Below are positions 17,647 through 40,400 of a DNA stretch of 64,000 nucleotides, one piece after another. Positions within the stretch are counted from its first letter, which is position 1. The number at the start of each line of letters is the position of its first letter. Made by a program: the position numbers and the translations under genes. The notes beneath the pieces were generated by a model. The model made no database searches. It was not told the origin of the DNA and was given only the letters and a program-made list of their open reading frames with translations. Source of the stretch: Mustelus asterias (taxonomy: Eukaryota); the NCBI RefSeq assembly GCF_964213995.1, contig NC_135816.1:38130001-38194000 (forward strand). Direction: 5' to 3'.

Positions 17647-17767
17647 AGGTGATGAAGGAGCGATGCTCCGAAAGCTTGTGCTACCAAATAAACCTGTTGG
17701 ATTTTAACCTGGTGTTGTGAGACTACTTACTGTGCCTACCCCAGTCTAACGCCAGCAACTCCACGTC
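17647..17767 (+). mobile_element. PLE 3'-end fragment with TSD
   Basis: GTGATGAAGGAGCGATGCTCCGAAAGCTTGTG..ACCAAATAAACCTGTTGG..CTCCACGTC; flanked by ACCATTCAATAC and ACCATTCATTAC. Confidence 0.8.
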
Positions 17768-18197
17768 ACCATTCATTACGTATTCCCTTACCTTATTAGT
17801 CCTCCCAAAATACATCACCTCACATTTTTCAGGGTTAAATTGCATGTGACTGGCCTGTCTATATTGTTCTGTAATCTAAGACTTTCCTCCTCGCTTTTTC
17901 CCACACCACCAATTTTTGTGTCATCCACGAATTTACGGATCATACCACCCACATTCACATCTCGATGAATAATGTATACGACAAAAAGCAAGGGACCCAG
18001 CACCAATCCCTTCAGTATACCACTGGACACAGGCTTCCAGCCACAAAAACAACCATCGACCATCACCCTCTGCCTCCTGCCATTAAGCCAATTTTGGATC
18101 TAATTTGCCAAATTGCTCCAGATCCCATGGGCTCTCACCTTGACCAGTCTCCCATGTGGGACCTTGTCAACAGCCTTACTGAAGTCTGTGTAGACTT

Positions 18198-18400
18198 GCA
18201 TTCCAACCATTATTTTGTAAATTGAGTTTGTGTCTTTATATGCCCTGTTTGTGAACAGAACTCCCACTCACCTGATGAAGGGGCAGCGCTCCGAAAGCTA
18301 GTGGCTTGTGCTACCAAATAAACCTGTTGGACTTTAATCTGGGGTTGTGAGACTTCTTACTGTGTTTATCCCAGTCCAACACCAGCATCTCCACATCATA
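18198..18400 (+). mobile_element. PLE 3'-end fragment containing a hammerhead motif
   Basis: Matches 27376-27548 plus the tail CCCCAGTCCAACACCAGCATCTCCACATC. Confidence 0.85.
18269..18303 (+). ncRNA. Minimal type I hammerhead ribozyme motif (PLE-associated)
   Basis: CAC-CTGATGA-A-GGGGC agc GCTCC-GAAA-GC-TA-GTG: core boxes, 5-bp stem II, palindromic AGCT stem III, CAC/GTG stem I. Confidence 0.7.
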
Positions 18401-20435: not shown

Positions 20436-20514
20436 CATGATGTGGAGATGCTGGTGTTGGACTTGGGTGGGCACAGTAAGAAGTCTCAACCTGGTGTTCT
20501 GAGACTTCTTACTG
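20436..20514. mobile_element. Miniature inverted PLE-end insertion
   Basis: Reverse tail plus ACAGTAAGAAGTCTCA / TGAGACTTCTTACTGT inverted arms; TSD TAAATTTATAGT at 20424-20435 and 20515-20526. Confidence 0.8.
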
Positions 20515-21875
20515 TAAATTTATAGTAATAGTAATAGATGCAGCATTCGTTAGGCAGTTTGTTTATCATTGTTCTCCATTCCCTCAATGCTTTATTGAAT
20601 AAATTGTGCAACATTTAACTCTATAGATTAGAAACATCTAATTTTTAATCCTGTATTTTTACATATAAAGCGGTCAATTCCCCATCATCACGCTCGGGGA
20701 ATGGTCCCTTTACAGCAATGATAATTGGGTCAGTGGGCCTCATTACTCTCAGTATGGAACTCCCAATTATACAATAGAATGTTTTTTTCATTCTTTAAGA
20801 AAGTGCTATGTGTATGTGCTGGCCTCATTTGAGACATCAAAAGTATTTCATGAATGAACATTGGTCCCCCATGGTCTTTTGCAGTACAGTTTCAGATTCA
20901 TTGACTATCTGTATAAAATACACTGGGAGACTGCCAAGCTATTTGATCCATCACTCCAATATTGAAAATCAGGTTGCCATTTTTTTTTTACTGAACTTAC
21001 AAAACTAAATGTTTTACATTACAGTTATTCTCCCCCCACCCAACCCCCGATATTGCTGGGTTTTTTGTAGTTCAAAAGAATGCAAAAATAGAAAAGTAAG
21101 AGGTTACCCTGGAACAGCTAGCATTAGAAGACAAGAACATATTAATGACATTTTCAAACTGTTCTATTGACACTGAATTGGAATTGGAGGCAAGCTCTGT
21201 CTTCCTTCTTGTAATGGTATAAAATCGGGAAAGGCCAAGAACAATGTGTATTCATGCATTTTTGTAATACCTGTTCACCAACCTCCCAGTGCCAGCATGA
21301 CTTTTAATGACTATCTTGTCAAATCTTGACAGTCAATTATTTTCAATCATTAATTAAAATTAATTATAAAAGGCCACCAAAGTTTACAATCAAACCTTTG
21401 CTCGATTTGAGAAAAACCTTCTACCAGCTGCTTTTACATTAGGGCTGTTGACTTCCTTTCCGGTTTACAGCTGGCCATTTTAATTTTGGAGTGAGCTGTT
21501 CAGTCAACAAGCCATTTAAAAATCAAATATTAAAAGTCTAATTATTGAGTAACCAGGGAAACACGAAAGGAAATACAAAATATGAAGTGACAAACCTAAT
21601 AATAGGAGAGCTGCACAGATGGGTTAGCTAATCCAATGAGTAGCAAAGGGAAATAAGCAATATTTTAAATTTATTTAAGGGAGTGGGCATCGCTGACTAG
21701 GCCAGCATTTATTGCCCATCCCTACTTGCCCTTGAGAAGGTGGTGGTGAGATGCCTTCTTGAACCACTGTAGTCCATGTTGTGTAAGTACACCCTCAGTG
21801 TGGTGTGACCCAATGGCAGTGAAGGAATGATGCTATATTTCCAAGTCAGGATGGTGAGTGCTAAACAAAATAAGT

Positions 21876-21995
21876 AGTCTAACAACACCAGGTTAAAGTC
21901 CAACAGGTTTATTTCTAAACCTGTTGGACTTTAACCTGGTGTTGTTAGACTTCTAACTGTGTTTACCCCAGTCCAACGCCGGCATCTCCACATCA
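21876..21995. mobile_element. Miniature inverted PLE-end insertion
   Basis: 36-bp inverted arms (21876-21911 and 21916-21951) followed by the tail; TSD AAACAAAATAAGT / AAACAAATTAAGT. Confidence 0.8.
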
Positions 21996-22329: not shown

Positions 22330-25300
22330 AGAAACAGGCTGACTATAAAAGTGAAAAATAAATAGAAGAAGCTAAGGGAAAGTCTGAGCAGATATTGGCA
22401 GCTAATTTTAAAGGGAATCCGAAGTCTCCAATAGGCAAACGAATAGTAAAAGATTCAATTAAGGAGTGGGGCCAATTAGGGTCCAAAAAGGGGACTTTCG
22501 CACAGCGACTGAGGACATAAATGATTAAATCTGTCCTTAGTAAAGAAGAAGATTCTGCCCAAGTCATAGTGAAAGAGGAGGTAGTTGAAAAACTGGATGG
22601 GCTAAAAATTAAAAAGAGGCATTAGAAAGATTGACTGTACTTAAAATTGATAAATCACCAGGTCCAGACTGAATGCATCTGAGAATAATGAGGGAAGTAG
22701 AGTGGAAATTGTAGAGGTACTGGCCATAATCCTCTAATACTCCATATATACAGGGTGATGCCTGAGGATTGGAGAACTACAAATGTCATTCTTGTTCAAA
22801 AAAGGGTGTAAGGATTAACTCAGCAACTACTGGCCAGTTAGTTTAACCTCAATGGAAGGAATACTTTTAGAAATTATAATCTGGGATAAAATTCACCAAC
22901 ATTGGATAAATTTGGATTGATTAAAGAAAGCTAGCCCATATTAGTTAAAGGAAAACCATATTTAACTAATTTGATAAGGTAACAGAGAGGGTTAGAACAT
23001 AGAACAGTACAGCGCTGATGGAAAGAATTGCCTCAACACAAGGGCATCCCAGGTGCACTGATACCAAGGGACACGTTAATACACAGACTGACAGCCTACT
23101 CTTGTTCACTCACATCACTAACTATAGAGATTCTGCGTTCGCTTGCAAAATAATTTAGTGCTTATAGTTGTGTCAGGGTTTGGTGTTTGTAAAACCTTTA
23201 GCAAATGGATCCATAACCACTCTTGATCTACTGCACATTCCCACCAGTGGAGTGCTGATATCAAGTCTAAGAATCCTTTCTCCAGTACCATTTTTCTGCA
23301 GTCGATGTTTTGCTAGAGTTTCGCCCCAATAATTCTGTCTTGTTATCCCTCTTTCCACCCCCCTCCCCATTTAAAAAATAATTCCTATCTGTCCCAACAT
23401 GGTAGAAGTAAATTTAACTTGAATATTTTCTTCAGTCACAGCTCAAGTGTCCCAGAGAGTGCAGTTCTTTCCTATCAAAGTTAGTCCAACAGGGCACCAT
23501 CTGGAACTGCATATTGATGTTGGACAGAAGGTTGAAAGTTTTTCTTTGTACGCAGAATTAGATACTCAGATTACAGTTTATACGGTGACACAGTGGTTAG
23601 CACTGCTGCCTCACAGCGTCAGGGACCCGGGTTCAATTCCGGCCTCGGGTCGCTGTGTGGAGTTTGCACATTCTCCCCGTGTCTGCGTGGGTTTCCTCCG
23701 GGTGCTCCGGTTTCCTCCCACAGTCCAAAGATGTGCGGCTTAGGTTGATTGGCCATGCTAAATTGACCCTAGTGTCAGGGGGATTAGTAGGGTAAATATG
23801 TGGGGTTACGGGAATAGGGTCTGGGTGGGATTGTGGTCGGTGCAGACTCGATGGGCCGAATGGCTTCCTTCTGCACTGTAGGTTTATTCTATTCTATTCT
23901 ATTCTAGCACAGAACAGGCCCTTCGGCCCACGATGTTGTGCCGAGCTTTATCTGAAACCAAGATCAAGCTATCCCACTCCCTATCATCCTGGTGTGCTCC
24001 ATGTGCCTATCCAATAACCGCTTAAATGTTCCTAAAGTGTCTGACTCCACTATCACTGCAGGCAGTCCATTCCACAGCCCAACCACTCTCTGCGTAAAGA
24101 ACCTACCTCTGATATCCTTCCTATATCTCCCACCATGAACCCTATAGTTATGCCCCCTTGTAATAGCTCCATCCACCCGAGGAAATAGTCTTTGACTATT
24201 GATGAAGATAATGAAGGTTATGTGGTTGACAGACTTTCAAAAGGCATTTGATATAGTGCCACATAACAGGCTTGTCCGCAGAGCTAAAGCCCATGAAATA
24301 AAAGGGACAGTAGCAGCATGAAAACAAAGTTGGTTGGGTGACAGGAAACAGAGGGTAATGGTGAACAGTTGTTTTCTGACCTGGAAGAAGGTGAGATTCC
24401 CCAAGGAATCACTGCTCTTCTTGATATATATTAACGGTCTAGACTTGGATGTGCAGGACTCAAGTTCAAAGTTTGCGGATGAAACTGTGAATTGTGAGCA
24501 TAGTGATAGACTTGAAGAGGACATCGACAGGCTGGTGGAATGGGTGGACATGTGACAGATGAAATTTAATGCAGAGAAGTGATATTCAGGTGGGAAGAAT
24601 GAGAAGAGGCAATATAAAATAAAGAGTACAATTCCAAAGGTGATACATGGGCAGAGGGAAACATGTACAAATCATTAACGATGGCAGGGCAGATTGAGAA
24701 AGTGATTAACAAAGCATACAAGATCCTGGGCTTTAAAAATAAAGGTATACAGTGTAAAGCAAGGAGATTATTATGAGCTTTTATAAAACATTTGTTTGGC
24801 CTCATCTGGAATATTGTGTCCAATGCTCGGCACCATACTTTAGGAAGGATCCCAGAGCAACAAAGAAGCTGCAGAAAAGATTTCTGAGAATAGATTCATG
24901 GAGAAAAAACTTGGATATATTGGAGGAGCTGTGCCTGCTCTTCTTACGATAGATGTATTCAAAGTCATGAGGGATCCGGACAGAGCAGACAAGGAGAAAC
25001 TGTTCTCATTGGACATGGTAGATAGGGAGAAACTATTCCCACTGGTTGAGAACTGGAGGACACCAATTTATGGTGAATGGCAAAAGAATCAAAGGCGACA
25101 TGAGGAAAAACTATTTTACATTTTAGGATCTGAAATGCATTGTCTGAATGTGCTGGATTCATGGATATCATGGATATTAAAAGAGAATTGAATTATTATC
25201 TGAATAGAAAAACATTGTGGGCAATGAGGAAAATGTAAGAGTATGAGACTTGCTGAATTGCACTTGCAAAGAGCCAGTACAGACATGACAGGCCAAATGG

Positions 25301-25335
25301 CCTCCTTCTGTGATATAACCATGTTATGATTCTAT
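22330..25335 (+). mobile_element. Degraded CR1 ORF2 with nested insertions at 22992-24197
   Basis: DKSPGPD, DFQKAFDIVPHNRL, KFADE and HLEYCVQ remnants; 3' tail ending TTATGATTCTAT. Confidence 0.85.
23581..23905 (+). mobile_element. V-SINE with (TTCTA)n tail
   Basis: Standard head and V-domain; ends TTCTATTCTATTCTATTCTA. Confidence 0.9.
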
Positions 25336-25412
25336 ACTTTCTCCAAGTATTTCAGTCATCTATTAATAATTAAGATGGCATCTATTAAGGCATAACTCAA
25401 TTAAGTGAGTGG

Positions 25413-26107
25413 GAGTCCTGTTCACAAACAGGGCATATAAAGACACAAACTCAATTTACAAAATAATGATTGGAATGCGAGTCTTTACAGGTAATCAAGT
25501 CTTAAAGGTACAGACAATGACGAGAGAGCGTTAAGCACAGTTTAAAGAGATGTGTATTGTCTCCAGCCAGGACAGTTAGTGAGATTTTGCAAGCCCAGGC
25601 AAGTCGTGGGGGTTACAGATAGTGTGACATGAACCCAAGATCCCGGTTGAGGCCGTCCTCATGTGTGCGGAACTTGGCTATCAGTCTCTGCTCAGCAACT
25701 CTGTGTTGTCGTGTGTCATGAAGGCCGCCTTGGAGAACGCTTACCCGAAGATCAGAGGCCGAATGCCCGTGACCGCTGAAGTGTTCCCCAACAGGAAGAG
25801 AACACTCTTGCCTGGTGATTGTCGAGCGGTGTCCATTCATCCGTTGTCGTAGCGTCTGCATGGTCTCCCCAATGTACCATGCCTCGGGACATCCATTCCT
25901 GCAGCGTATCAGGTAGACAACGTTGGCCGAGTTGCAAGAGTAGGTACCGTGTACCTGGTGGATGGTGTTCTCACGTGAGATTATGGCATCCGTGTCGCTT
26001 CGAAAGCTAGTGGCTTTTGCTACCAAATAAACCTGTTGGACTTTAACCTGGTGTTGTTAAAACTCTTATTGTGTTTACCCCAGTCCAACGCCGGCATCTC
26101 CACATCA
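25413..26107. mobile_element. Penelope-like element fragment with internal inversion (GIY-YIG C-terminus on -, 3' end on +)
   Basis: Minus ORF NVVYLIRCRNGCPEAWYIGETMQTLRQRMNGHR..GLN is a PLE GIY-YIG endonuclease; orientation switches at 25997/25998. Confidence 0.9.
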
Positions 26108-26217
26108 TGACCATCCTACACTATGTGGAGATGCCGGCGTTGGACTGGGGTAAACACAGTAAGAAGTTTAACAACACCAGGTTAAAGTCCAACAGGTTTA
26201 TTTGGTAGCAAAAGCCA

Positions 26218-26254
26218 CACAAGCTTTCGAAGCTCTAAACCCCTTCTTCAGGTG
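26218..26254 (-). ncRNA. Minimal hammerhead ribozyme motif, left arm
   Basis: Reverse complement CAC-CTGAAGA-A-GGGGT ttaga GCTTC-GAAA-GC-TT-GTG; stem II retained through G-U pairs. Confidence 0.6.
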
Positions 26255-27448
26255 AGTGGGAATTCTGTTCACAAACAGAGCTTATAAAGACACAGACTCA
26301 ATTTACATGAATAATGGTTGGAATGCGAATACTTACAACTAATCCAGTCTTTAAGAAACAAAACAATGGGAGTGGAGAGAGCATCAAGACAGGCTAAAAA
26401 GATGTGTATTGTCTCCAGACAAGACAGCCAGTGAAACTCTGCAGGTCCACGCAACTGTGGCAGTTACAAATAGTGTGACATGAACCCAACATCCCGGTTG
26501 AGGCCGTCCTTGTGTGTGCGGAACTTGGCTATCAGTTTCTGCTCAGCGACTCTGCGCTGTCGTGTGTCGCGAAGGCCGCCTTGGAGAACACTTACCCAAA
26601 TATCAGAGGCCGAATGCCCGTGACCGCTGAAGTGCTCCCCAACAGGAAGAGAACAGTCTTGCCTGGTGATTGTCGAGCGGTGTTCATTCATCCGTTGTCG
26701 CAGCGTCTGCATAGTTTCCCCAATGTACCATGCCTCGGGACATCCTTTCTTGCAGCGTATCAGGTAGACAACGTTGGCCGAGTTGCAAGAGTATGTACTG
26801 TGTACCTGGTGGATGGTGTTCTCACGTGAGATGATGGCATCTGTGCCGGATCATCGACACAGATGCCATCATCTCACGTGAGAACACCATCCACCAGGTA
26901 CACGGTACATACTCTTGCAACTCGGCCAACGTTGTCTACCTGATACGCTGCAAGAAAGGATGTCCCGAGGCATGGTACATTGGGGAAACTATGCAGACGC
27001 TGCGACAACGGGTGAATGAACACCGCTTGACAATCACCAGGCAAGACTGTTCTCTTCCTGTTGGGGAGCACTTCAGCGGTCACGGGCATTCGGCCTCTGA
27101 TATTCGGGTAAGCGTTCTCCAAGGCGGCCTTCGCGACACACGACAGCGCAGAGTCGCTGAGCAGAAACTGATAGCCAAGTTCCGCACACACAAGGACGGC
27201 CTCAACCGGGATGTTGGGTTCATGTCACACTATTTGTAACTGCCACAGTTGCGTGGACCTGCAGAGTTTCACTGGCTGTCTTGTCTGGAGACAATACACA
27301 TCTTTTTAGCCTGTCTTGATGCTCTCTCCACTCCCATTGTTTTGTTTCTTAAAGACTGGATTAGTTGTAAGTATTCGCATTCCAACCATTATTCATGTAA
27401 ATTGAGTCTGTGTCTTTATAAGTTCTGTTTGTGAACAGAATTCCCACT

Positions 27449-27485
27449 CACCTGAAGAAGGGGCTTAGAGCCTCGAAAGCTTGTG
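27449..27485 (+). ncRNA. Minimal hammerhead ribozyme motif, right arm
   Basis: CAC-CTGAAGA-A-GGGGC ttaga GCCTC-GAAA-GC-TT-GTG. Confidence 0.68.
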
Positions 27486-27584
27486 TGGCTTTTGCTACCA
27501 AATAAACCTGTTGGACTTTAACCTGGTGTTGTTAAACTTCTTACTGTGACCATCCTACACTACACAGACCATCAGCAACCTGAA

Positions 27585-27700
27585 GCGGTCACCATGGCGA
27601 CGGTGCCATCTTGGAACATCACCCGGCGGCCACCCCGCGCGTCCCGCACGTCATATCCGGGCGTGGCGGGCGCGCTTCCTCTTTCTCTGCGGCCTGGGAG
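27585..27700 (+). promoter_or_regulatory. RACK1 CpG-island promoter with TCT/5'TOP initiator
   Basis: CTTCCTCTTTCTCT at 27675-27688; YY1-like ATGGCG and GCCATCTTG; CRE-like ACGTCA; high CpG density. Confidence 0.8.
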
Positions 27701-27716
27701 AAGCGAGCTGAGCTGA

Positions 27717-28037
<321 letters not shown>

Positions 28038-28702
28038 TAGGCGGCCAGGGTTATTGCGGGTTACACGTACACACTTAGACTGCCATCCGCCCATTACAAG
28101 TTGGGTGAGAGAGAGGCCTGGCCTCCCTGTCAGCAAATTACAACAATTCGCAGTTGTTAACTGCAAAGACGGGAGTTGTGTATACATCAGAGTAATCAAA
28201 ACTGGAAATGCTTTTGTTAGATAGTTAAGTAACTGGGGATTAATTAGAAATGCTCGCAACACTTCAATGTCCCAAAGTGTTTGACAGCAAATGCATTGAA
28301 TTCACTTTGCAACTAGAGTCACGGTTTTAGTACACGCGGTAGCTAATTCAAAGCGCGACCGTATCTTTGTGCTAAAAAAGGAAACTACTTTATAGTGGCA
28401 AGAAACCTGCAGTTGGAAATCGGAAGCAGTCCGGTAGAATCTGTGGTGAGAGCAGACCAGTTAACGTTTTCCTTTCAGATCGTTTGTCAATCCTACTCCC
28501 TGGATGGGCAAGCATGGTTACTTACTCAGGGGATGCAGGGCTACTTACTCTTTCATATCATAACCTTCTATTAGAAAGTACTGGTGAAAGGTCACTGATC
28601 TGAGAGGTTGAACTCGTTATTCTCTGCATAGATCCAGCCGGACCTGTTGAGTAGTTCCAGTATTCTCTCTTATTTGATTTTCAGCATCCGGTGTTTGCTT
28701 TT

Positions 28703-28968
28703 CATAGAATCCTACAGTGCAGAAGGAGGCCATTTGGTCCATCAAGCCTGCACTGACCATAATCCCACCCAGATTCTATCCCCATAGCCCCATGTATTTA
28801 CCCTAGCTGGTCCCCCTGACACTAAGGGGCAAGGGGGAACTAGAATTGCCCCTTACTGTCAGGGGGTCTAGCTAGGGTAAATACATGGGGATAGGGCCTA
28901 GGTGAGATTGTGGTTGGTGCAGGCTCGATGGGCCAAATGGCTGCCTCCTCCACTGTGGGGATTCTATG
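28703..28968. repeat. Inverted pair of SINE 3' halves in RACK1 intron 1
   Basis: 28703-28832 (- orientation) and 28846-28968 (+ orientation) are complementary, separated by ~13 bp. Confidence 0.85.
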
Positions 28969-29226
28969 ATTCTAACCTAACAAATAGCCTGACAAATTTG
29001 TAAGTTGTATTTCTATATTTTTAATGTAGCAAAATCCCCAAGGCAATTCACAGGAGTGAATATCAAACAATGTTGGCCACTGCAATATTTGTTCTTATAA
29101 TAAGTTAGCTTTTTGATGAAAATAGGGCATATTACTGAATAATGTTTACTGCATTATGTTAAATTGATGTCATAGCTGGAAAATAACTTAAACTGCAACT
29201 TGAGTTAATCACAATGCTGTGTTTGA

Positions 29227-29421
<195 letters not shown>

Positions 29422-29573
29422 TAAGGATACAGTATTTTAAGATAAAATTTGTAAGTAAAAGTGGGTCTGTTCTGGATGTACTTGAAATGTTAGTAATATC
29501 ATGATGTTGGTCCAAAGACATTGATGGGGTAGTTGAACATTAGTGAATGTTTATGATACCTTGGATTGATTAA

Positions 29574-29765
<192 letters not shown>

Positions 29766-31779
29766 TAGCTACTGTATTATGTATGAACGTGATTATTTCA
29801 GTTTATCACAATTTGATAATTTAGCTGTGAAATCATCCAGTAGCAGAATCTGAAATGGCTAATAATCCCACTCTAAAGAAGCCTTTTATAATTCATCTTA
29901 AATGTAAATTTAAAATGTATCTTTTACATTGTAGTTTCCATGTATTTAAATGCATTCCTAGTCTTGTGATGAGAAATTAGTTAATCAAGGTGTATAATGG
30001 TGGGTCTGAACTTTTCAAACTTATTTTGTCCACCTCAATTGAAAGCGCACACTGGTACAATTATTTTATCCTTGATGTGTCTGGAGACTGTTCTGTGAGG
30101 TGCGACAAATTGAATTCACCATTTATTGGCACAATCATGTTTTGTCCACGAATATAAATATTACTGCAAATAATATTGGAGTCAGTCATATTATGTTTCA
30201 TTTTTGAGTCAAAATTATGCACCACATCTATTAATTTATTCTAGATGCAATGTTTACATGACGTCAAGTTGTCCAATCTCTTTTTAGCCTGATAATTCAA
30301 TCAAACAAAACAGGCATGGCTAATTGGTGGTGGGGGAGACAATGTGGAAGGGAGCGTAACATGTCCTTTAGAGAAAGAAATTGGCTATTTTTGCCTGGTC
30401 TGGCCTACATGTGACTCCAGATCCATAGTGGTTGACTCTTAAATGGCTTAGTGAGCCAGTTCAAGGACAATTAGAGATGGGTAATAAATGCTGGCCCAGA
30501 CAGTGATACCCACATCCAATGAAAGAATTTAACTAGTCAAGTGCCACACTGTTAATGATTTGGATGAAGGGAATGCAAAAGGAATATTTGAAGTGTTACT
30601 ATAGCTGAAGAGGGTGTTGGTAAGGCTGTGCCTGTAGTAGTATGTACAGTTCTGGTCCCTTTAATTGGGGAAAGGACACTTGCATTGGAAGCAGTTCTGA
30701 GAAGGCTCACTGGGCCTGAAATGGCAAGCACTGATACCTGCCATCTGGAGAGTTGGTAGGGAATGCATCTCTGTTGTTGCTACCATGCCAGTTGTCATTT
30801 TTCACTCAAATGAACATTGATTGGCAGCAGGCGAGACTTCTGTCCTCACTTTGACAGAAATCTTGCCTTGGGGAGTTGTCAGGCAATCAGGTTGGCCGAT
30901 AGCTCTCCAGCCCATCCTGGCATGGCAGTGGCTGGAAGAGGTTCCGTGGCTGAGGCACAAGCCTCAGGACCGCAGTTCTGGTGAGTACTTGGAGGATAAG
31001 GGATGTCCCAGTGTTCACCAGGTGGGTGGTCTTGCTGGGTGGGGTGGGATGAATCCATGTGGGGAGGGTGCCCCCAGTCTTGAGTACCCACCCCTTCATC
31101 CGGCCCAAGATGAAGGATGGCAATTGTTTGTTTTCCACTCAGTCAGATGCGGGCCTAAAAATTAAAGCTGGCCAGGCTTCATGTCGACCTCAAAAGTATG
31201 TCTGGGTTAGGGCGGTGGAAGTCTGGAGGGTATCCTATCCATGTTATTTGACGCTCCTGCCTGGGAGGGTAAAACTTTGGTCTAGGTTGATTCCTGTACT
31301 GATATTGTGTGAGGAAAGATCAGGCCTTACTTTGGATGCATAAAGGGTGGTCTTCTGGAAACATACTGAGCGGGATTGAGGATGATTTCCTTCATGGGGA
31401 AAGCTAGAGCAAAGGAACACAGTTTCAGAATGAGGCATCTCCCATTTAAGACAGATGAATTTCTTTGTGCGTAGTTATTCTTTACAATTCTGCACCCTAA
31501 AGTGGAGGCTGAGTCATTGCATGAAGACTGAGTTGGGTAAATGTTTGGTCTGTACTTTAGTTGAGGGACTGGCAGAAAAGTAGAGCTGTGACCATGAACT
31601 AGGTCAGCCATTTTATTGAATGGCAAGGCACTCTTGAGAGGCCGAACGGCCTACTCTTTAAATTATTATTGACCATGGTTTCTCAGGTAGGCGGCAGCAA
31701 GAATTGTCAAATGCAGGAAGTGAGAATGGTGAATCTGCCTTTGTTAATTTTGCTCCATTTTTCCCATGTCTGTTTATAG

Positions 31780-31932
<153 letters not shown>

Positions 31933-32122
31933 TGATGGAAATAAATTTCAACTGCTGTAAAGTTGGGTCAATGGTTGGATGTAGATTTTGCCAGGACTGA
32001 AATTTGAAGCTTTCTTTGGCAGTGTCTGAATTGAGATCTCGGTTTATTTTTTAAATTGGGATGTAATAGTCTAAAATCTGAAGTCTTTGAAGTGTTTAAA
32101 TGTGTATTCATCACTAATCCAG

Positions 32123-32233
32123 GTTTGGAACTTGGCCAACTGCAAACTGAAAACAAATCACATTGGGCACCCTGGCTATCTGAACACAGTTACCGTTTCT
32201 CCTGATGGATCCCTGTGTGCTTCTGGAGGCAAG
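32123..32233 (+). CDS. RACK1: RACK1 exon 5
   Basis: [37 protein letters not shown]. Confidence 0.98.
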
Positions 32234-32556
32234 GTAGATCACCATAGCTTTACGTGATTACTATTAACAGGGAAAATAGGTGTTTTTCATTTGATGGATT
32301 AGATGGCTAACAGCCCTTGAAATAGACATTATCAACAGCATTCAACTGTTCAGCGAATGTATGTGCATGAAATCTGATTTGTCATTTGCATTCTACTGTT
32401 GCTACAATATTTTCAGGCTGCTCTTAGTTTTTAGTTTCAAATGTGAAATATTATAAAACCAAAGCCAGTAAAAACTCGTGTCTAATGGTTTTCCAGAAGT
32501 TTTGAATTGTCTGTCAAACTTTGCCCAGTATAAGATTTTTTTGTTCCTCCGTGTAG

Positions 32557-32796
<240 letters not shown>

Positions 32797-33403
32797 TAGA
32801 ACAAACCCTTGATGTATGGGGGGATGATTCTCCAAAAAAAAAATCTAAATTATAGAATCCTACTGTGCAGAAGGACTCCATTTGGCCATTGACAGTACGA
32901 GGGAAATTCAGATGAAAAGCCACATTTTCAATATTAACTCTGATTTGTCCACACAGTGAACCATGAGCTGTTTGTGGCTGTGTTCTATTTTATTGACTAG
33001 TTTCTCCTGTTCATGGTCTGGATATTTGGAAGGGGCCATATAGTTGGTGCCTTATCTTTGGATACAGTCTACTAGTAATTGTCTTTTTTTTGCACAAAAA
33101 CAAATTGAAATGTTCTTTGACATTGGGGGCTAGCCAGCAGCAAAGCCACTCCTTAGTGTAGCAATGTATTTTAATTATTTTCCAATACCCCATTTGCCTG
33201 AAAGAACAGGGTGATGAAACACCGCCTTATTTTTGTAACTGCCCATTGGTTAATGTTGCTTGCACATCCGGGTAGTTGAGTGTCAGTATTTGTTTTTGAA
33301 GATGCTAATAATGTTGCTAAATTCAATTTGTATTTGCTTAAAACCACCTTGTACAGACCAGAATGGACAGGTATTTTCAATTGAAATATTAATTCAAATT
33401 CGA

Positions 33404-33490
33404 CCAGTATCCTGATGATTATTTCTATTCACAAAAACACCTGACCCTTATGGGGGTGATTACAAGTCCTGCAAATATGAGGGATACTGG
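33404..33490 (+). ncRNA. SNORD96: C/D box snoRNA, SNORD96-like (5.8S rRNA 2'-O-methylation guide), intron 6 copy
   Basis: 9-bp terminal stem CCAGTATCC/GGATACTGG; C box TGATGA; D' CTGA; C' GTGATTA; guide GTCCTGCAA complementary to 5.8S UUGCAGGAC; variant D box ATGA. Human RACK1 hosts SNORD96A. Confidence 0.75.
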
Positions 33491-33581
33491 ACTATAATTT
33501 TCAGTAATGGCAATTGTGCAATGTATGTGGCTGTTGTATGTTAGTCTTATACTTGCGAGTTTTTAAACAGAAACTTCCTAA

Positions 33582-33803
<222 letters not shown>

Positions 33804-33806
33804 TGA

Positions 33807-33892
33807 CCAGTATCCCGATGATTATTCCTATTCACAAAAACACCTGACCCTTATGGGGGTGATTACAAGTCCTGCAAATATGAGGGATGCTA
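33807..33892 (+). ncRNA. SNORD96: C/D box snoRNA, SNORD96-like, intron 7 copy
   Basis: Near-identical to 33404-33490; stem AGTATCCC/GGGATGCT; C box degenerate (CGATGA); identical guide. Confidence 0.65.
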
Positions 33893-34153
33893 GACTATCA
33901 TTTTTAGTAGTGGCAATTGTGAAATGTATGTGGCTGTTGTATGTTCATGTACCTCCAAGAGTTATACAGTTATACATATTGATAGTTAAATAGCAGTAAC
34001 TTGAGTGATTTTGTCCCTGTGGCATGTTTTAGCTACCAGTTTGCAAATCTAGAAACCCAGTGGTGGCTGGCTTGAAGGCCACTTAATTAGATAGCAATTT
34101 GAGAGATAAACAACCATATTAGAATTAAATGATCTCTTATGTTTGCCCCACAG

Positions 34154-34219
34154 ACGTTGTTTGCTGGCTACACTGATAACCTCATCAGAGTGTGGCAGGT
34201 CACCATTGGAACAAGATGA
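34154..34219 (+). CDS. RACK1: RACK1 exon 8 (stop)
   Basis: TLFAGYTDNLIRVWQVTIGTR*; AATAAA at 34271-34276. Confidence 0.98.
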   Translation, partial: TLFAGYTDNLIRVWQVTIGTR

Positions 34220-35439
34220 AGTGTTTCTTCTGAGAAGATAGAGAATCTTTACTTGTTTGAGCTGATCTGAAATAAAATATTCCTGTTTTCAACCTGTATC
34301 GGATCTCAACTTGAATACATGGTGTTCCCTTTCGGATTTCCTGAGTGAATAACTGATCTAAGCACACTTGCCTGTTTTATAATGTGACAACATTGAATGT
34401 TAAAGTTCTGTATATGTAACCATGGCTAATCGTAATATTTAATTGTGGGAGGGTTTTGCAGATTGCTAAATGCCATTTTCAAGTTTTATTAAAACTAGGC
34501 TAGATAGGTTGGATTACTGTTCTTTCATGTTGCACTATATATGAAAGGTTGTAAGTAGTCTTTTTTGGGGCCTATGGAGGCTGTGTTTACAAAAAAAATT
34601 CTTATTGCCTTTGATTCTTTTGCTGGTTACCTTAAAATCAGTGTGTCTGGTTATGTATCCTTTCAACAAGGACACTTTCTTTCCTTTTCCTCGGTCCCTT
34701 GTGATTTTTGAACACACAAATCTCTATGGAAAACAGCCTCAGCTTCTCCAATCTAACCATGCAGCTAAAATCCCTCATGCCTGGCATAATTCTTGTAAAT
34801 ATTTTCTGCACCCTCTTTAATGCATTCACATCCTTCAAGTGTGGTGACCAGAATTAGACAATCCAGTTAAAATTAATGTATGACAGAATTTGCCATTTCT
34901 ATATTGTTTTGCAATTAATCCTGCCCTTTAAAGCAACATTCCCCCCCCCCAAAACAATTGCAAATCTACTGGTGGTCTTGTTGAGTCCAGGCTATTTGGG
35001 ATGGAATACAAATGTAAACTCACTTTTCTAATCTATAGGAGCATTCCCTGAATGTTCCATAGTGCTAGATTAGATTGTTGGATGCTCATTGGCTACAGAG
35101 AGTCATGCTCAGAAAAATATGCATCAGAAACATGGACAATGTACAGCAGGCACTCAATTCCCTGGAGCGATATAATCTGGCACAAGATTCTTAAAACAAG
35201 TGCTCTACTCTGAGCTTTGCCATGGCAAGCACTTACGAGGAGGGCAGAGGAAATGCTGCAAGGACACACGGGGAGGAGGCAAGTGTAAATAGCAGATGTA
35301 TACACTAGCCTATGCAACCTTTTCTGATAACTAAAATTCTCCATTCTGGATCACATCCTTGTTAATCTCTGGTACCTTCTTTAGTACAATCGCATCTTGG
35401 CACCCATCTCATCAAACCTGTGGCAGTCTGCAGCTCCAG

Positions 35440-36105
35440 GATTGGAGTATTGTGTTTCTGAGTGGAGGGCTGTGACAAGTGGTGTTCTGTGTTTACCCCA
35501 GTCCAACACTGGCATCTCCACATCAAGTGGTGTTCCTCAGGGATCAGTGCTGGGACCTTTGCTGTTCGCAATATATATAAATGATTTGGAAGAAAATATA
35601 ACTGGTTTGATTAGTAAGTTTGTGGATGACACAATGGTTGGTGGATTTGCGGATAGCGATGAGGACCATCAGAGGATACAGCAGGATATAGATCGGTTGG
35701 AGGCTTGGGTGGAGAGATGGCAGATGGAGTTTAATCCAGACAAATGTGAGGTAATGCATTTTGGAAGTCTAATAAAGATAGGATATATACAGTAAATGGC
35801 AGGACCCTTAAGAGTATTGATAGGCAGAGGGATCTGGGTGTACAGGTACACAGGTCATTGAAAGTGGCAACGTAGGTGGAGAAGGTAGTCAAGAAGGCAT
35901 ATGGTATGCTTGCCTTCATCAGCCAGGGCATGAGTTTTAAAATTAGCAAGTCATGTTGCAGCTTTATAGAACCTTAGTTAGGCTGCACTTGGAATATAGT
36001 GTTCAATTCTGGTTGCCACACTACCAGAAGGATGTGGAGTCTTTGGAGAGGGTACAGAAAAGATTTACCAGGATGTTGCCTGGTATGGAGGGCATTAGCT
36101 ATGAG
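35440..36105 (+). mobile_element. CR1 RT fragment with a 36-bp PLE tail inserted at 35488-35523
   Basis: GVPQGSVLGPLLFAIYINDL..KFVDDT; the insert is flanked by the TSD CAAGTGGTGTTC. Confidence 0.9.
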
Positions 36106-36379
36106 GTGAGGGCCTGTTCCTGTGCTGTAATTTTCTTTGTTTTTTGGCCACTGCCTGCGTGTCATTGTTTTAACTTGCGGTGGTCTTGGGTCAGTTGCAG
36201 GGAAATCTGAGACGACTGGAGACCAGGCTCTGCTGTAGGATAGAGACTAACAAACACATCATCCACCAAGCATCTGCCTGTCTGTCAGGGACATCACTCT
36301 TTGGGTGTGATGTCATTCCCCCACTCTCCTGCCTGGTAGTCTCACTCCTGTTTGCACTGCTCCTGTCCCGCTGTCACTA

Positions 36380-37240
36380 AGAAAGGTGTGTTGCACTAGA
36401 GAAGATACTGCAGAGATTTACAAGGATGTTACCTGGACTGGAGAATTTTAGTTATCAGGAAAGATTGCATAGGCTAATGTTTATTTTTGGAGACTGAGGA
36501 GGGAGCTTCTTGAAGTTTACACAATTGCAAAGTCTAGGTAGAGTGACTAGGAAGCCCCTCGCCCTGGATTGAGAGGTCTATAACCAGGCGGCATAAATTC
36601 AGCGTGAGAGTTGGGAGCTTCATTGTCTTAGAGGTTTACAGCATGGAAACAGGCCCTTCAGCCCAATGTGTCTATGCCACCATTTTTTTAATGACTAAGC
36701 TAGTCCCAATTGCCCGCGTTTGGCCTATTTACCTCGATAGCCATCTTACTCATGTTTCTGTCAATGTTTTTTAAAAGAAAATTGTAGCCGCCTCTACTAC
36801 TACCTCTGGCAGCTTGTTCCAGACACTCACCGCCCTCTGTGAAAAAATTGCCCCTCTGCACACTTTTGCATCTCTCGCCTTAAACCTATGCCCTCTAGTT
36901 TTAGACTCCCTTACCTTTGGGAGAAAATGTTGACTAGCTGATCTATGCCACTCCATTATTTTATAGACCTCTATAACATCATTCCTACGCTCCAGCACCC
37001 ACTTTTTTACAGATAATTCATTGGGAAATCTTTGAGGGTGGTGGGGATCTGGAATTTGCTGCCTGAAAGAATGTTGGAGATGGAAATGATCACTGTATTT
37101 ACAAAGTACTTGAGCGCACAGCTGAAGTGCTGTAGCTTACCAGGCTGTGCACCAAAAGCCAGAAAGTGGGATTGGGCTGGATGGCTCCTTACTAACTAGC
37201 ATAGACACAATGAACTGAATGGCCTTCCATGCTGTGAATT
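36380..37240. mobile_element. Nested CR1 3' fragments on both strands
   Basis: RFTRMLPGL and IFSQRAVSVWNKLP remnants with CR1 3'UTR signatures. Confidence 0.7.
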
Positions 37241-37956
37241 TGTAAAGTTTATTTCCACGTTCCCATTAATCTGCATCTAATATCTTCCTATTGCCACGTG
37301 TTGCATGATTTTCTGCTCTCCACTGATTTCAGTTTTTAAAGTTTTCAATGTGTGGATGACATGCTGTATTAATTTCCCATCTCAAGATGGTGGTGATGGG
37401 CCTTCTGTCATTGCTGCAGTTCCACAAAGCTGTCAGGCAGGGATCTTGGCAATGATTAAAAAAAGGGGAGAGAAATGTTTTAAGTCAGGATAGTGTGCAA
37501 TTTAATAGAGGAACTTGTAGGTTATGTTTCCAGGACATTGCTACATCAGTGAATTAACAATCTAAAACCGATCATAAAATACAAACTAGGTGAACTGTAA
37601 GAAAAGTCCCCCACCACCACTGTCGAAGTCTCCGTGTGACTTTGTTTAACGTAGTTACCTTGGGGCACTGTCATTGTAGTCAGATTTTGGTGATGTGTGG
37701 AACAGCTTCCTGTTGCAGCCATTTAGACGCACATTTTCCCTTCACCGGTTGTGCTGTTGAGAACCTTTCGGACCGCATTTTGTCTGGCACCTCTCCCGGA
37801 CTTTGCTGCCATTGGTCGTCCTACCAGGAGCAAGAAGCTCCTGACTGAATGGTTCAGGGGGTAGTCGGAAGGTACACACCTCTCCACCACGCGGAGGTAG
37901 CGCTCCACATAGGGGCTAAGTAATGTAACACATCCTGTGCTCCTGCAGTTCAGCTA

Positions 37957-38460
37957 GTTACCATGTAACAGAACTAGAATAAATCAGAAACCAGGTGAAC
38001 CAGTTCGGTGTCAAGTGGCAGCTACTGCAAACAGCTCTGCATATCAAAGTTAGAGGCAATTGCTTAAATATTTGGAGGCAAGTTAGAGGCAATTGCTTAA
38101 ATATTTGGCGGAATAACAATTATTTAAAAACATTGTAGTGAGAAAAAGTATTTAATTGATATTTGAACCGATCTCAAACAGACATGCGGTAGAATCTACA
38201 TTCTCCTGCTCAAAATTTCAGAGTTTGTAGAAAGAAATCTTTTGAGTTTAGCTGAGTGACAGTATTCACAGGAGCCACAGACAAGTTGCCCAATGAGTTC
38301 CCTACCGTCATTAAGATTTATTTACAAAACGTTGCAGATTAGCAAGGCGTTTTATAAAATCTAAAGTAACCTGCGATAAATGTAAATTGGTGTCAGAGAA
38401 AGGTTGCTTCTGCAAAGTCTCCTGGGAGAGGGACATTAACACGGACTGTCCCTTAGCAAC
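37957..38460 (+). promoter_or_regulatory. RFX X-box motifs upstream of NME5
   Basis: GTTACCATGTAAC (37957-37969) and GTCCCTTAGCAAC (38448-38460) fit the X-box consensus; NME5 is a motile-cilia gene. Confidence 0.6.
38047..38108 (+). repeat. 29-bp perfect direct repeat (33-bp period)
   Basis: AAGTTAGAGGCAATTGCTTAAATATTTGG at 38047 and 38080. Confidence 0.9.
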
Positions 38461-38643
38461 CAGAGCAGCCGATACAACAACAGAAGGAAAATGGGGAAGA
38501 TCTGTGCCGTGTTTTAAAAAGCTCTTGTTACTCGCAAGTGTAAAAAACCCCACATTTTTAGAATAACTTTTTCATTTTCTCGCTGCCGCTGCAGTGCTGT
38601 CCAGTTGCAGTGTTTTGTTGGGAATTTCAGCCGGAGGGAGTGA

Positions 38644-38775
38644 ATGATGGAGCAAGCTCAGTGTGCAGCAGAGGTGTATGTGGAGAGGACACTGGCCCTG
38701 ATCAAACCCGACGCCATTGAGAACGCCAACGAAATCGAAGAGATCATCCTCCGATCCGGGTTCACCATTCTTCAA
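38644..38775 (+). CDS. NME5: NME5 (nucleoside diphosphate kinase homolog 5) coding exon 1 of 5
   Basis: MMEQAQCAAEVYVERTLALIKPDAIENANEIEEIILRSGFTILQ|GT. The five exons (132+206+101+119+87 = 645 nt) give 214 aa plus stop. Confidence 0.95.
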
Positions 38776-39289
38776 GTAGGCTGTGTGGTTTGCACTGAGC
38801 AATATCTTCTATCAATGTACCCCCTGCCAGTCAATACAACTGTTACAACGCTGTACAAAACACTGTCAATTACAATTCAGTTTTAATGTTTTACAACATT
38901 TCTGCTTTTGGTTATGGGGCGATGGTGGATTTATGTATTTTGTGTTCAGTTTATCATTCTCAATTGTGTTTCACTGGTTATCGTAGATGTTGTTAAATAC
39001 CGGAAGTATAGAAGAAAGTACGGCCATAGGGGTAAGACATGGACTCGCTTTGCTAGAGTTTGCTACATACAGTATCTGTTGTCTTCACTGAAAACAGTAA
39101 GAAGCCTCACAGGTTGTCCACATCATGGCTTCCCTGAAAAAAACAGAAGCAGAGTAATGGTCTCCATTAGGACCGTTGCTCTTTTTGGTATGTGGTTAGA
39201 ACCTGGAAAAATACGATGCATAGAGGGAGAGACACGTAACATTGAAGTAAAGAACAGTTCAGAAACAAGAAGGGCCAGGCGGTGGGTGA

Positions 39290-40400
39290 ATGCTAAGCTG
39301 TCTAATGTGGGATTAAAGTGCACGTACTTAAATGCATGCAGTGTGGTAAATAAGCTTTGGTGAACTACAGGTTTAAGTCAGTCACATGGATCGATGGTAT
39401 AGTGACAAATAAGACTTATTGGCTATTGGGAACTTAATATTCCTGGCTATGAGGTATTCAGGAAAGATATGGAAGGGAAAAATAGGAGGGAGGGTGGCAG
39501 AATTGATCAACTAAATTACAACATTGGAAAGAGTGGAAGTAATTGCAGGGCTCCATAACCTAATGGTTAGAATTAAGGAACAATTGAGGATATATTACAA
39601 TAATGGGTGTATATTTTGTCACAAAATAGTGGGAAGAATATAGTGGAACAAATTTGCAGGCAAATTACAGAACAATATGAGAACTATAGAATAATAATGT
39701 GGGTGCCAATTATTCCAATATAGACTGGGATAGGAACAGTGGAAGGGCAAAGAATGGGAGAAAACCTTGATGAGTACATTTCTAACCCAAGCAGGAAGGA
39801 AGAATTGTTCAATCTAATTCTGGGGAAGAGCAGAAGTGAAACTGGTTTCAATGGGGCCCATTTGGGAACATTGATCAGAATATCATTTGGTTTAGAATAG
39901 TTATGGGAATGATAAGGAACACGTGTGAAAATATTTAAATGGAGATGGACTAATTTCAGCAAGTTGAAAAGTGTCACCAAATCCAGGTGTACTGGAATCA
40001 AACCTTGGTAGGCAAAGCAGGAATTGAACAGTGGCCGGCCTGCACTAGAGAAGATAGTTTGGGTACAGAATAGACACGCTCCCATGAGGGGAAGAGAAAG
40101 GCATCTAGAGCTGGAACTTCCTGGAGACTGAGGATGTAGACATTTACATGAAAGAGAAAAAGGTGATTTGTGACAAATACCTGTAAAAGGTTCATAATAC
40201 ATTAAAGAACCAAACTGAATACAAAATTATACTGAGAGATCTAAAAAAGAAACAAAGGGCAAAGAGAGTGCAGGGGAATAGATTAGTATAGTACTTAAAG
40301 AGGAACACAAAAATCATTCATAGACATATCAATAATAAAAAGCTAGTTAAAGGAAGGGCAGAGCCTTTTATGAACCAAAAGGGTGGTGATCTCCTTTTTT
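39290..40400 (+). mobile_element. Degraded CR1 endonuclease-region fragment (NME5 intron)
   Basis: LKCTYLNACSVVNK, LNIPGYEVFRKD and GGRVA motifs. Confidence 0.75.

Follow-up and report, generated by a model that had tools for sequence, protein, structure and literature searches.

The palindrome at the edge of the RACK1 promoter in Mustelus asterias is very probably a young, non-coding insertion of two truncated 3' ends of a Penelope-like element (PLE) lying head to head, likely primed by both cut strands of a TG-N16-CA target and most likely a passenger without a role in RACK1. The layout, the family, the one-tail rule, the symmetric truncation, the target motif, the 12-bp duplication and the stacking at old copies are direct observations; the way in which the element was inserted is discussed conditionally below.

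Structure of the palindrome and its element family

The window analysed was a stretch of 64,000 nucleotides (contig NC_135816.1, positions 38,130,001 to 38,194,000). Its features around the palindrome are as follows.

25405..25997, minus strand: older copy of the family, antisense piece (arm positions 1–597), 88% identical to the left arm
25997..26111, plus strand: tailed sense 3' piece of the older family copy, 95%, ending in TGAC, the left half of the target motif
26108..26123, plus strand: left target-site duplication, 16 nt literal, with the 12-nt core at 26112–26123
26124..26154, minus strand: 31-nt PLE tail, left arm only
26155..26848, minus strand: left arm, a 5'-truncated PLE 3' end that comprises an endonuclease coding remnant, a 3' UTR and a hammerhead
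26215..26260, minus strand: minimal hammerhead motif of the left arm, core 26251–26225
26464..26848, minus strand: GIY-YIG endonuclease coding remnant of the left arm, without start and without reverse transcriptase (RT)
26843..26860, no strand: palindrome centre, a native imperfect 6-bp stem with a 6-nt loop (26849–26854)
26855..27548, plus strand: right arm, a 5'-truncated, tail-less PLE 3' end
26856..27239, plus strand: GIY-YIG coding remnant of the right arm, reaching the native stop after 127 aa (PF01541, E = 1.9e-4, score 22.1 bits, cut-off 22.6)
27443..27488, plus strand: minimal hammerhead motif of the right arm, core 27452–27478, predicted cut after 27482
27547..27562, plus strand: right target-site duplication, 12-nt core 27551–27562, followed by the right half-site CACA at 27563–27566
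27563..28060, no strand: RACK1 CpG island, GC 0.64, CpG observed/expected 0.91
27679..27888, plus strand: RACK1 exon 1, with the pyrimidine tract at 27679, the ATG at 27780 and the end of RNA-type contigs at 27888

The palindrome at the RACK1 edge was confirmed as real. Its arms (26155–26848 and 26855–27548) are 694 nt each, without indels, and are separated by a loop of 6 nt; all nine differences between them are transitions. The 691-bp arms, 12-bp spacer and eight differences of the original prediction describe the same inverted repeat trimmed at its innermost mismatch, and the distance of about 130 bp to the TOP start agrees with the 131 nt between the arm end and the pyrimidine tract, CTCTTTCT, which begins at 27679. 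The predicted 16-bp target-site duplication is present as a literal direct repeat at 26108–26123 and 27547–27562. It overlaps the element, its first 2 nt being also the last bases of the arm and its last base also belonging to the tail, and the core of the duplication in the family is the 12 bp at 26112–26123 and 27551–27562. Two features were absent from the prediction: the left arm is 31 nt longer than the right one (26124–26154), and the left repeat is abutted by an older copy of the same family (25405–26111).

This older copy resembles an inversion product whose two pieces leave a gap of 18 nt (positions 597 and 616, inside the hammerhead); another old copy, L051, likewise starts at position 616. 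An upstream target duplication of the older copy, looked for at the 25405 side, was not found. A second, tail-to-tail inverted repeat (26010–26218; 96-bp arms, 97%, 17-nt spacer) consists of the end of the old copy and the new left arm, and is there as a by-product of the reinsertion. Further short pieces of the family are present at 17674–18395, 20441–20484, 21862–21992, 35487–35522, 53718–53806 and 54299–54368, the piece at 21862–21992 being itself a small palindrome.

That the palindrome might be an assembly fold-back artefact had already been argued against, and the case was upheld by the one-sided tail, the target duplication, the arm differences and further loci. Long palindromes are difficult to assemble and a spanning long read was not among the evidence, but the flanks differ and carry the target duplication, the tail is on one side, the nine arm differences include alleles common to other loci, and 25 further complete loci have the same layout, each with its own duplication. 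We consider an artefact hardly credible.

The predicted PLE origin of the arms was also supported. Each arm combines the final 127 endonuclease codons with a 3' UTR and a minimal hammerhead, and its endonuclease motif, VVYLIRCKKGCPEAWYIG, is of the GIY-YIG type with cysteines inside the core (PF01541, just under the cut-off). The longer family copies L020 and L025 include RT (PF00078, E = 5e-9) and GIY-YIG (E = 7e-5), PF01541 being above the cut-off on L025. In L020 a 501-aa frame with RT continues into the arm sequence, while the palindrome itself is without RT. The linker before the endonuclease reads CHSNLCKTC in L025 and CHSNLCKMC in L020, i.e. CX4CX2C. A CX2-5CxxC linker before the endonuclease is given as the mark of Neptune/Nematis elements in the available text of PMC8557442, and the order of RT, CX4CX2C linker and GIY-YIG with two core cysteines corresponds to these elements as described there. 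Judged from linker and domains in the sequence, the element belongs to the Neptune/Nematis type of C-terminal EN+ PLEs, a placement that makes no choice between the two. The locus also shows the hallmarks of EN+ PLE insertion, namely a tail of 30–40 nt at one end, an inverted 5'-truncated copy and a target duplication.

One hammerhead motif per strand, as predicted, was found at 27452–27478 (plus) and 26251–26225 (minus). The bare pattern gave nine matches in the window against 6.3 expected, which is not above chance, and the Rfam scan gave no hammerhead match at the gathering score or up to E = 10, its other matches being only hairpin-driven miRNA families below the gathering score. What identifies them is the agreement with the published minimal-hammerhead layout, together with paired changes among the family copies. 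Both arms have the core CUGANGA / GAAA, the G10.1–C11.1 pair, helices I and II and an NUH triplet; among the copies, helix I changes from CAC/GTG to CAT/ATG, and paired changes are also present in helix II. Folded as monomers the motifs were no more stable than shuffled sequences (z 0.18 to 0.61), and helix II forms in the right-arm fold and is absent from the minimum-energy fold of the left arm. By sequence criteria they are the element's own minimal motifs, and cleavage is predicted only. They share with the minimal hammerheads of metazoan PLEs, in the part of PMC4209133 that was available, an additional base behind the core, a long helix II, a short helix I and a palindromic helix III remnant. 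Opposite-strand pairs lie 100–700 bp apart in that text and about 1.2 kb apart here, with otherwise no substantive difference. According to the same text this minimal type needs a dimer of the same polarity and cuts poorly, and self-cleavage is described as weak and dimer- or protein-dependent (PMC4209133, available part; PMC11167929).

Palindromes and target sites across the family

Palindromes centred in three 15-nt windows of the element numbered 24 (the centre found here), 20 and 78 (position ~100), altogether at least 122. Exactly one tail was present in all 26 informative palindromes (27 examined), and also in 23 of 24 head-to-head pairs that were not chosen by their centre. The 5' ends were at most 20 nt apart in 16 of these 24 pairs, compared with a mean of 4.1 after shuffling (0/10000 shuffles reached the observed value). 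The most frequent duplication length was 12 bp (11/27 palindromes). An inverted copy with a tail and a target duplication is the published PLE layout (PMC3846280 and PMC8557442, as far as their available text goes), and the palindrome is a routine product, in this already known layout, of a very abundant family with 64,773 exact matches to a 27-nt tail in a genome of 3.7 Gb. The structure had been expected to be unusual or unstable, which was not borne out: it is what the family routinely produces, and copies with 5–6% arm divergence persist. Old palindromes of this divergence with short spacers, L038 and L041, have survived intact.

Two other interpretations of the arms were rejected. The arm is not a complete pseudo-LTR ending at the start site of the element, as the control windows hold 20 and 78 palindromes; the early matches all started at one position because the query selected for it. 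A self-propagating palindromic element with fixed ends (MITE- or foldback-like) was ruled out by the centres present in all three windows tested. The centre of the present palindrome is thus a chance truncation point. Excluded from the counts were L034 (tandem flank; target count), L015 (centre) and duplicate strand matches, from the arm alignment L036 and L037 (partial arms), and from the concordance test given below six older loci.

Loci L004, L043, L045 and L049 have perfect 757-bp arms with no mismatches and belong to a very young subfamily with an internal insertion. Given this subfamily, the family may still be active.

Of 23 reconstructed empty sites, 17 had the motif TG-N16-CA centred on the 12-bp duplication, against a background of 0.67 in 23 (P = 7e-22); the figure was 15 of 20 after three sites flanked by older copies were removed. 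Other spacings of the half-sites reached at most 5/23. The ends of the element can finish in TG-NN, TGAC at the tail and TGTG at the other end, and a half-site can therefore be rebuilt by the element.

Old tails followed directly by an inverted tail were found at 15 loci with a gap of 4–18 nt, compared with six at a control gap of 104–118 (P = 0.04), a count that is weak alone; the search selected old tails ending in TGAC. The spacer was 9–13 nt in 13 of the 15 stacked loci, the range of 9–13 nt having been set after the matches were viewed, though it equals the length of the duplication. The same target was present three times in seven of the 15, and in most of these the two element copies differ clearly in identity. 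The RACK1-edge locus is one of the 15 stacks: an 88–95% identical copy ends in TGAC at 26111 and is followed by 12 bp, the palindrome and CACA at 27563. It has two and not three copies of the target because the older copy is without an upstream duplication. The palindrome is inserted into the target of the older copy, a site that the element has likely used more than once. The right junction of this window is present at 18 loci (L066–L083); 15 of them carry it at a single base of another repeat, an insertion hotspot at one TG-N16-CA site where the inserts vary in length.

Proposed insertion mechanism and age

The insertion would start with the endonuclease nicking both strands 12 nt apart. One 3' end would prime at the tail site and the other 31–37 nt inside, and the two cDNAs would be linked through a short self-complementary word lying close to the end of either one; we propose that the arms therefore end at the same place. 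Fill-in would then yield the palindrome. The landing here is likely due to the TGAC tail end of the older copy, which, 12 bp away from the genomic CACA, restored a complete target. With an anole element in vitro both strands were cut and extended, and two RT start sites bound the tail (PMC11167929).

The allele distribution bears on this account in both directions. In 19 young loci the arm alleles of one locus mostly agree (0.58 differences against 4.4 when shuffled, 0/5000), which weighs against two cDNAs because a single cDNA folded back on itself predicts the same. Such a cDNA would fold at the central stem and copy itself, the arm differences arising by later gene conversion. Besides the mostly concordant subfamily alleles, a 77-column insertion is present in both arms at 7/7 loci, self-complementary words are often found at palindrome centres, and self-priming is proposed in the available text of PMC3846280. 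However, the arm that has native 5' sequence is tail-less and cannot template the longer arm, the tail is on either side at the same centre (L001 and L010 vs. L002 and L003), and the copied arm must halt at the second start site each time. Furthermore, the arms here differ at two subfamily-diagnostic non-CpG sites (569 and 618), and the arms of L035 derive from two subfamilies, one with a 16-bp deletion also present in L005. Fold-back of a single cDNA is accordingly an improbable origin of the palindrome, and priming from both cut strands is preferred.

The RACK1-edge locus is the most discordant of the 19 young loci. At 569 and 618 its left arm carries the alleles of an older subfamily, and this haplotype occurred a single time among the compared copies. 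Judged from such arms, two templates, a template switch or later conversion occur at least sometimes. The adjacent old copy was ruled out as a donor for conversion of the left arm, which is without the other differences of that copy.

Of 681 core sites, 8 differ between the two arms and 6 between the right arm and another locus. In a relative (runs X7 and X8) a PLE end in an orthologous contig meets the flank at 27551, as predicted; this junction was seen in one contig of depth ~5 from one sample. This end differs from the end of the right arm at 4 of 27 letters, compared with 22 of 750 in the flank, and its variant had no match when searched in the present genome. Since the right arm is only 6/681 from another locus whereas the flank differs at 22/750, the palindrome is younger than the split from the relative, and the PLE end in the relative is therefore likely an independent insertion; it may alternatively be a common insertion plus a small deletion. 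In a third organism (X19) the sequence upstream of 27580 is unrelated. An X1 contig spans 27526–28300 without differences, although only 23 letters are on the arm side and X1 is possibly the source of the assembly; an X15 contig aligns from 27549 and ends 24 letters further. By the comparisons with the other locus and with the relative, the insertion is young and lineage-specific.

We see about equal weight for and against a wider reading of the target, namely that the two-sided TG-N16-CA motif is rebuilt by the element's own ends, that a site once hit would remain a landing pad for millions of years, and that the RACK1 promoter edge received two insertions in this lineage and, independently, another at the identical base in the relative. 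No description of a TG-N16-CA target or of same-site reinsertion for PLEs was found in the literature searched; the supplement of PMC11167929 (target sites, Figs S1–S2) may bear on it, and the available part of bioRxiv 10.64898/2026.07.22.740005 added nothing on PLE target or reinsertion. If true, this would amount to a rule by which a retrotransposon renews its own target sites, undescribed for PLEs in that literature.

RACK1, related systems and significance

The identity of the downstream gene as RACK1 held, its first 36 codons being identical to the top PDB RACK1 chain (E = 2e-21). An inverted-repeat element of about 250 bp in intron 1 (28711–28959) partly matches 25275–25310 and is MITE-like or another repeat. 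Two tRNA genes with the anticodons CAC and AAC (valine) are present at 54959–55031 and 55579–55651, 27 kb from the RACK1 start; human RACK1 is likewise close to tRNA genes. In the RACK1 introns (27800–40000) no snoRNA match was found up to E = 0.1, although the mammalian gene is the host of SNORD95/96.

It had been suggested that upstream antisense RNA from RACK1 runs through the palindrome and forms a 690-bp duplex of consequence as a source of endo-siRNA or an ADAR substrate. A CpG-island promoter is indeed 131 nt away, read-through RNA is predicted to fold as foreseen into one long hairpin with 98% of its bases paired, and the minus strand has no AATAAA or ATTAAA before 26197. Small RNAs against PLEs are reported from a rotifer in the available text of PMC3846280. 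On the other side, CpG decay accounts for four of the nine arm differences (four among the eight core differences), the pattern that methylated and silent DNA would show. The insertion is also young and restricted to its lineage, and 122 or more comparable long palindromes, along with family copies in the tens of thousands, could be sources of the same RNA. A special silencing source was not borne out with 64,773 tails in the genome. Neither was the importance given to the ribozymes: the hammerheads would be sequestered in the hairpin, predicted to be paired with their complements, and are of a type needing a same-polarity dimer (PMC4209133, available part). Contigs from runs X3, X4 and X12 of the same organism, small runs taken as RNA from the exon-shaped RACK1 contig, start at 27639 and 27685 with none over 27563–27613, and contigs show presence only. 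No locus-specific RNA was seen in contigs, which cannot exclude RNA, and the signal of the arm is swamped by the family copies. The letter differences there were ruled out as editing, the same changes being present in a DNA run as family variants. Divergent transcription from CpG-island promoters is usually short-lived. Altogether a duplex of consequence is quite unlikely. On the basis of its abundance and youth the palindrome is most likely a passenger without a role at RACK1, which it adjoins probably because of target reuse rather than function.

The layout resembles that of Pen2a/Pen2 of Adineta (PMC3846280; layout PMC8557442), which in the available text have head-to-head 3' ends, one 31-bp tail, a duplication and a junction palindrome, but the Mustelus locus has no ORF body and just two truncated ends. 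Its duplication hardly departs from 12 bp and lies inside TG-N16-CA; the available text of PMC8557442 gives instead a variable length and a moderate target preference. PAc, a Poseidon element of Anolis, is similar in its two RT start sites bounding the tail and in the cutting and extension of both target strands (PMC11167929). It has a hammerhead near the ORF start that is dispensable for insertion in vitro and, unlike the present element, prefers AT-rich ATT sites (PMC11167929). In PAc the strands do not differ in start site, whereas here exactly one tail was present in 49 of 50 pairs, which implies coupling.

The locus itself is of little consequence, but the family is a large natural record of PLE insertion, a step called unresolved in PMC11167929 and in the available text of PMC8557442. 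Direct predictions for an assay in vitro are the fixed stagger of 12 bp, a single tail for each insertion, symmetric truncation and site reuse. Same-site reinsertion would make these elements unsafe as presence/absence markers in phylogeny, and the genome tolerates hundreds of long, tightly spaced palindromes.
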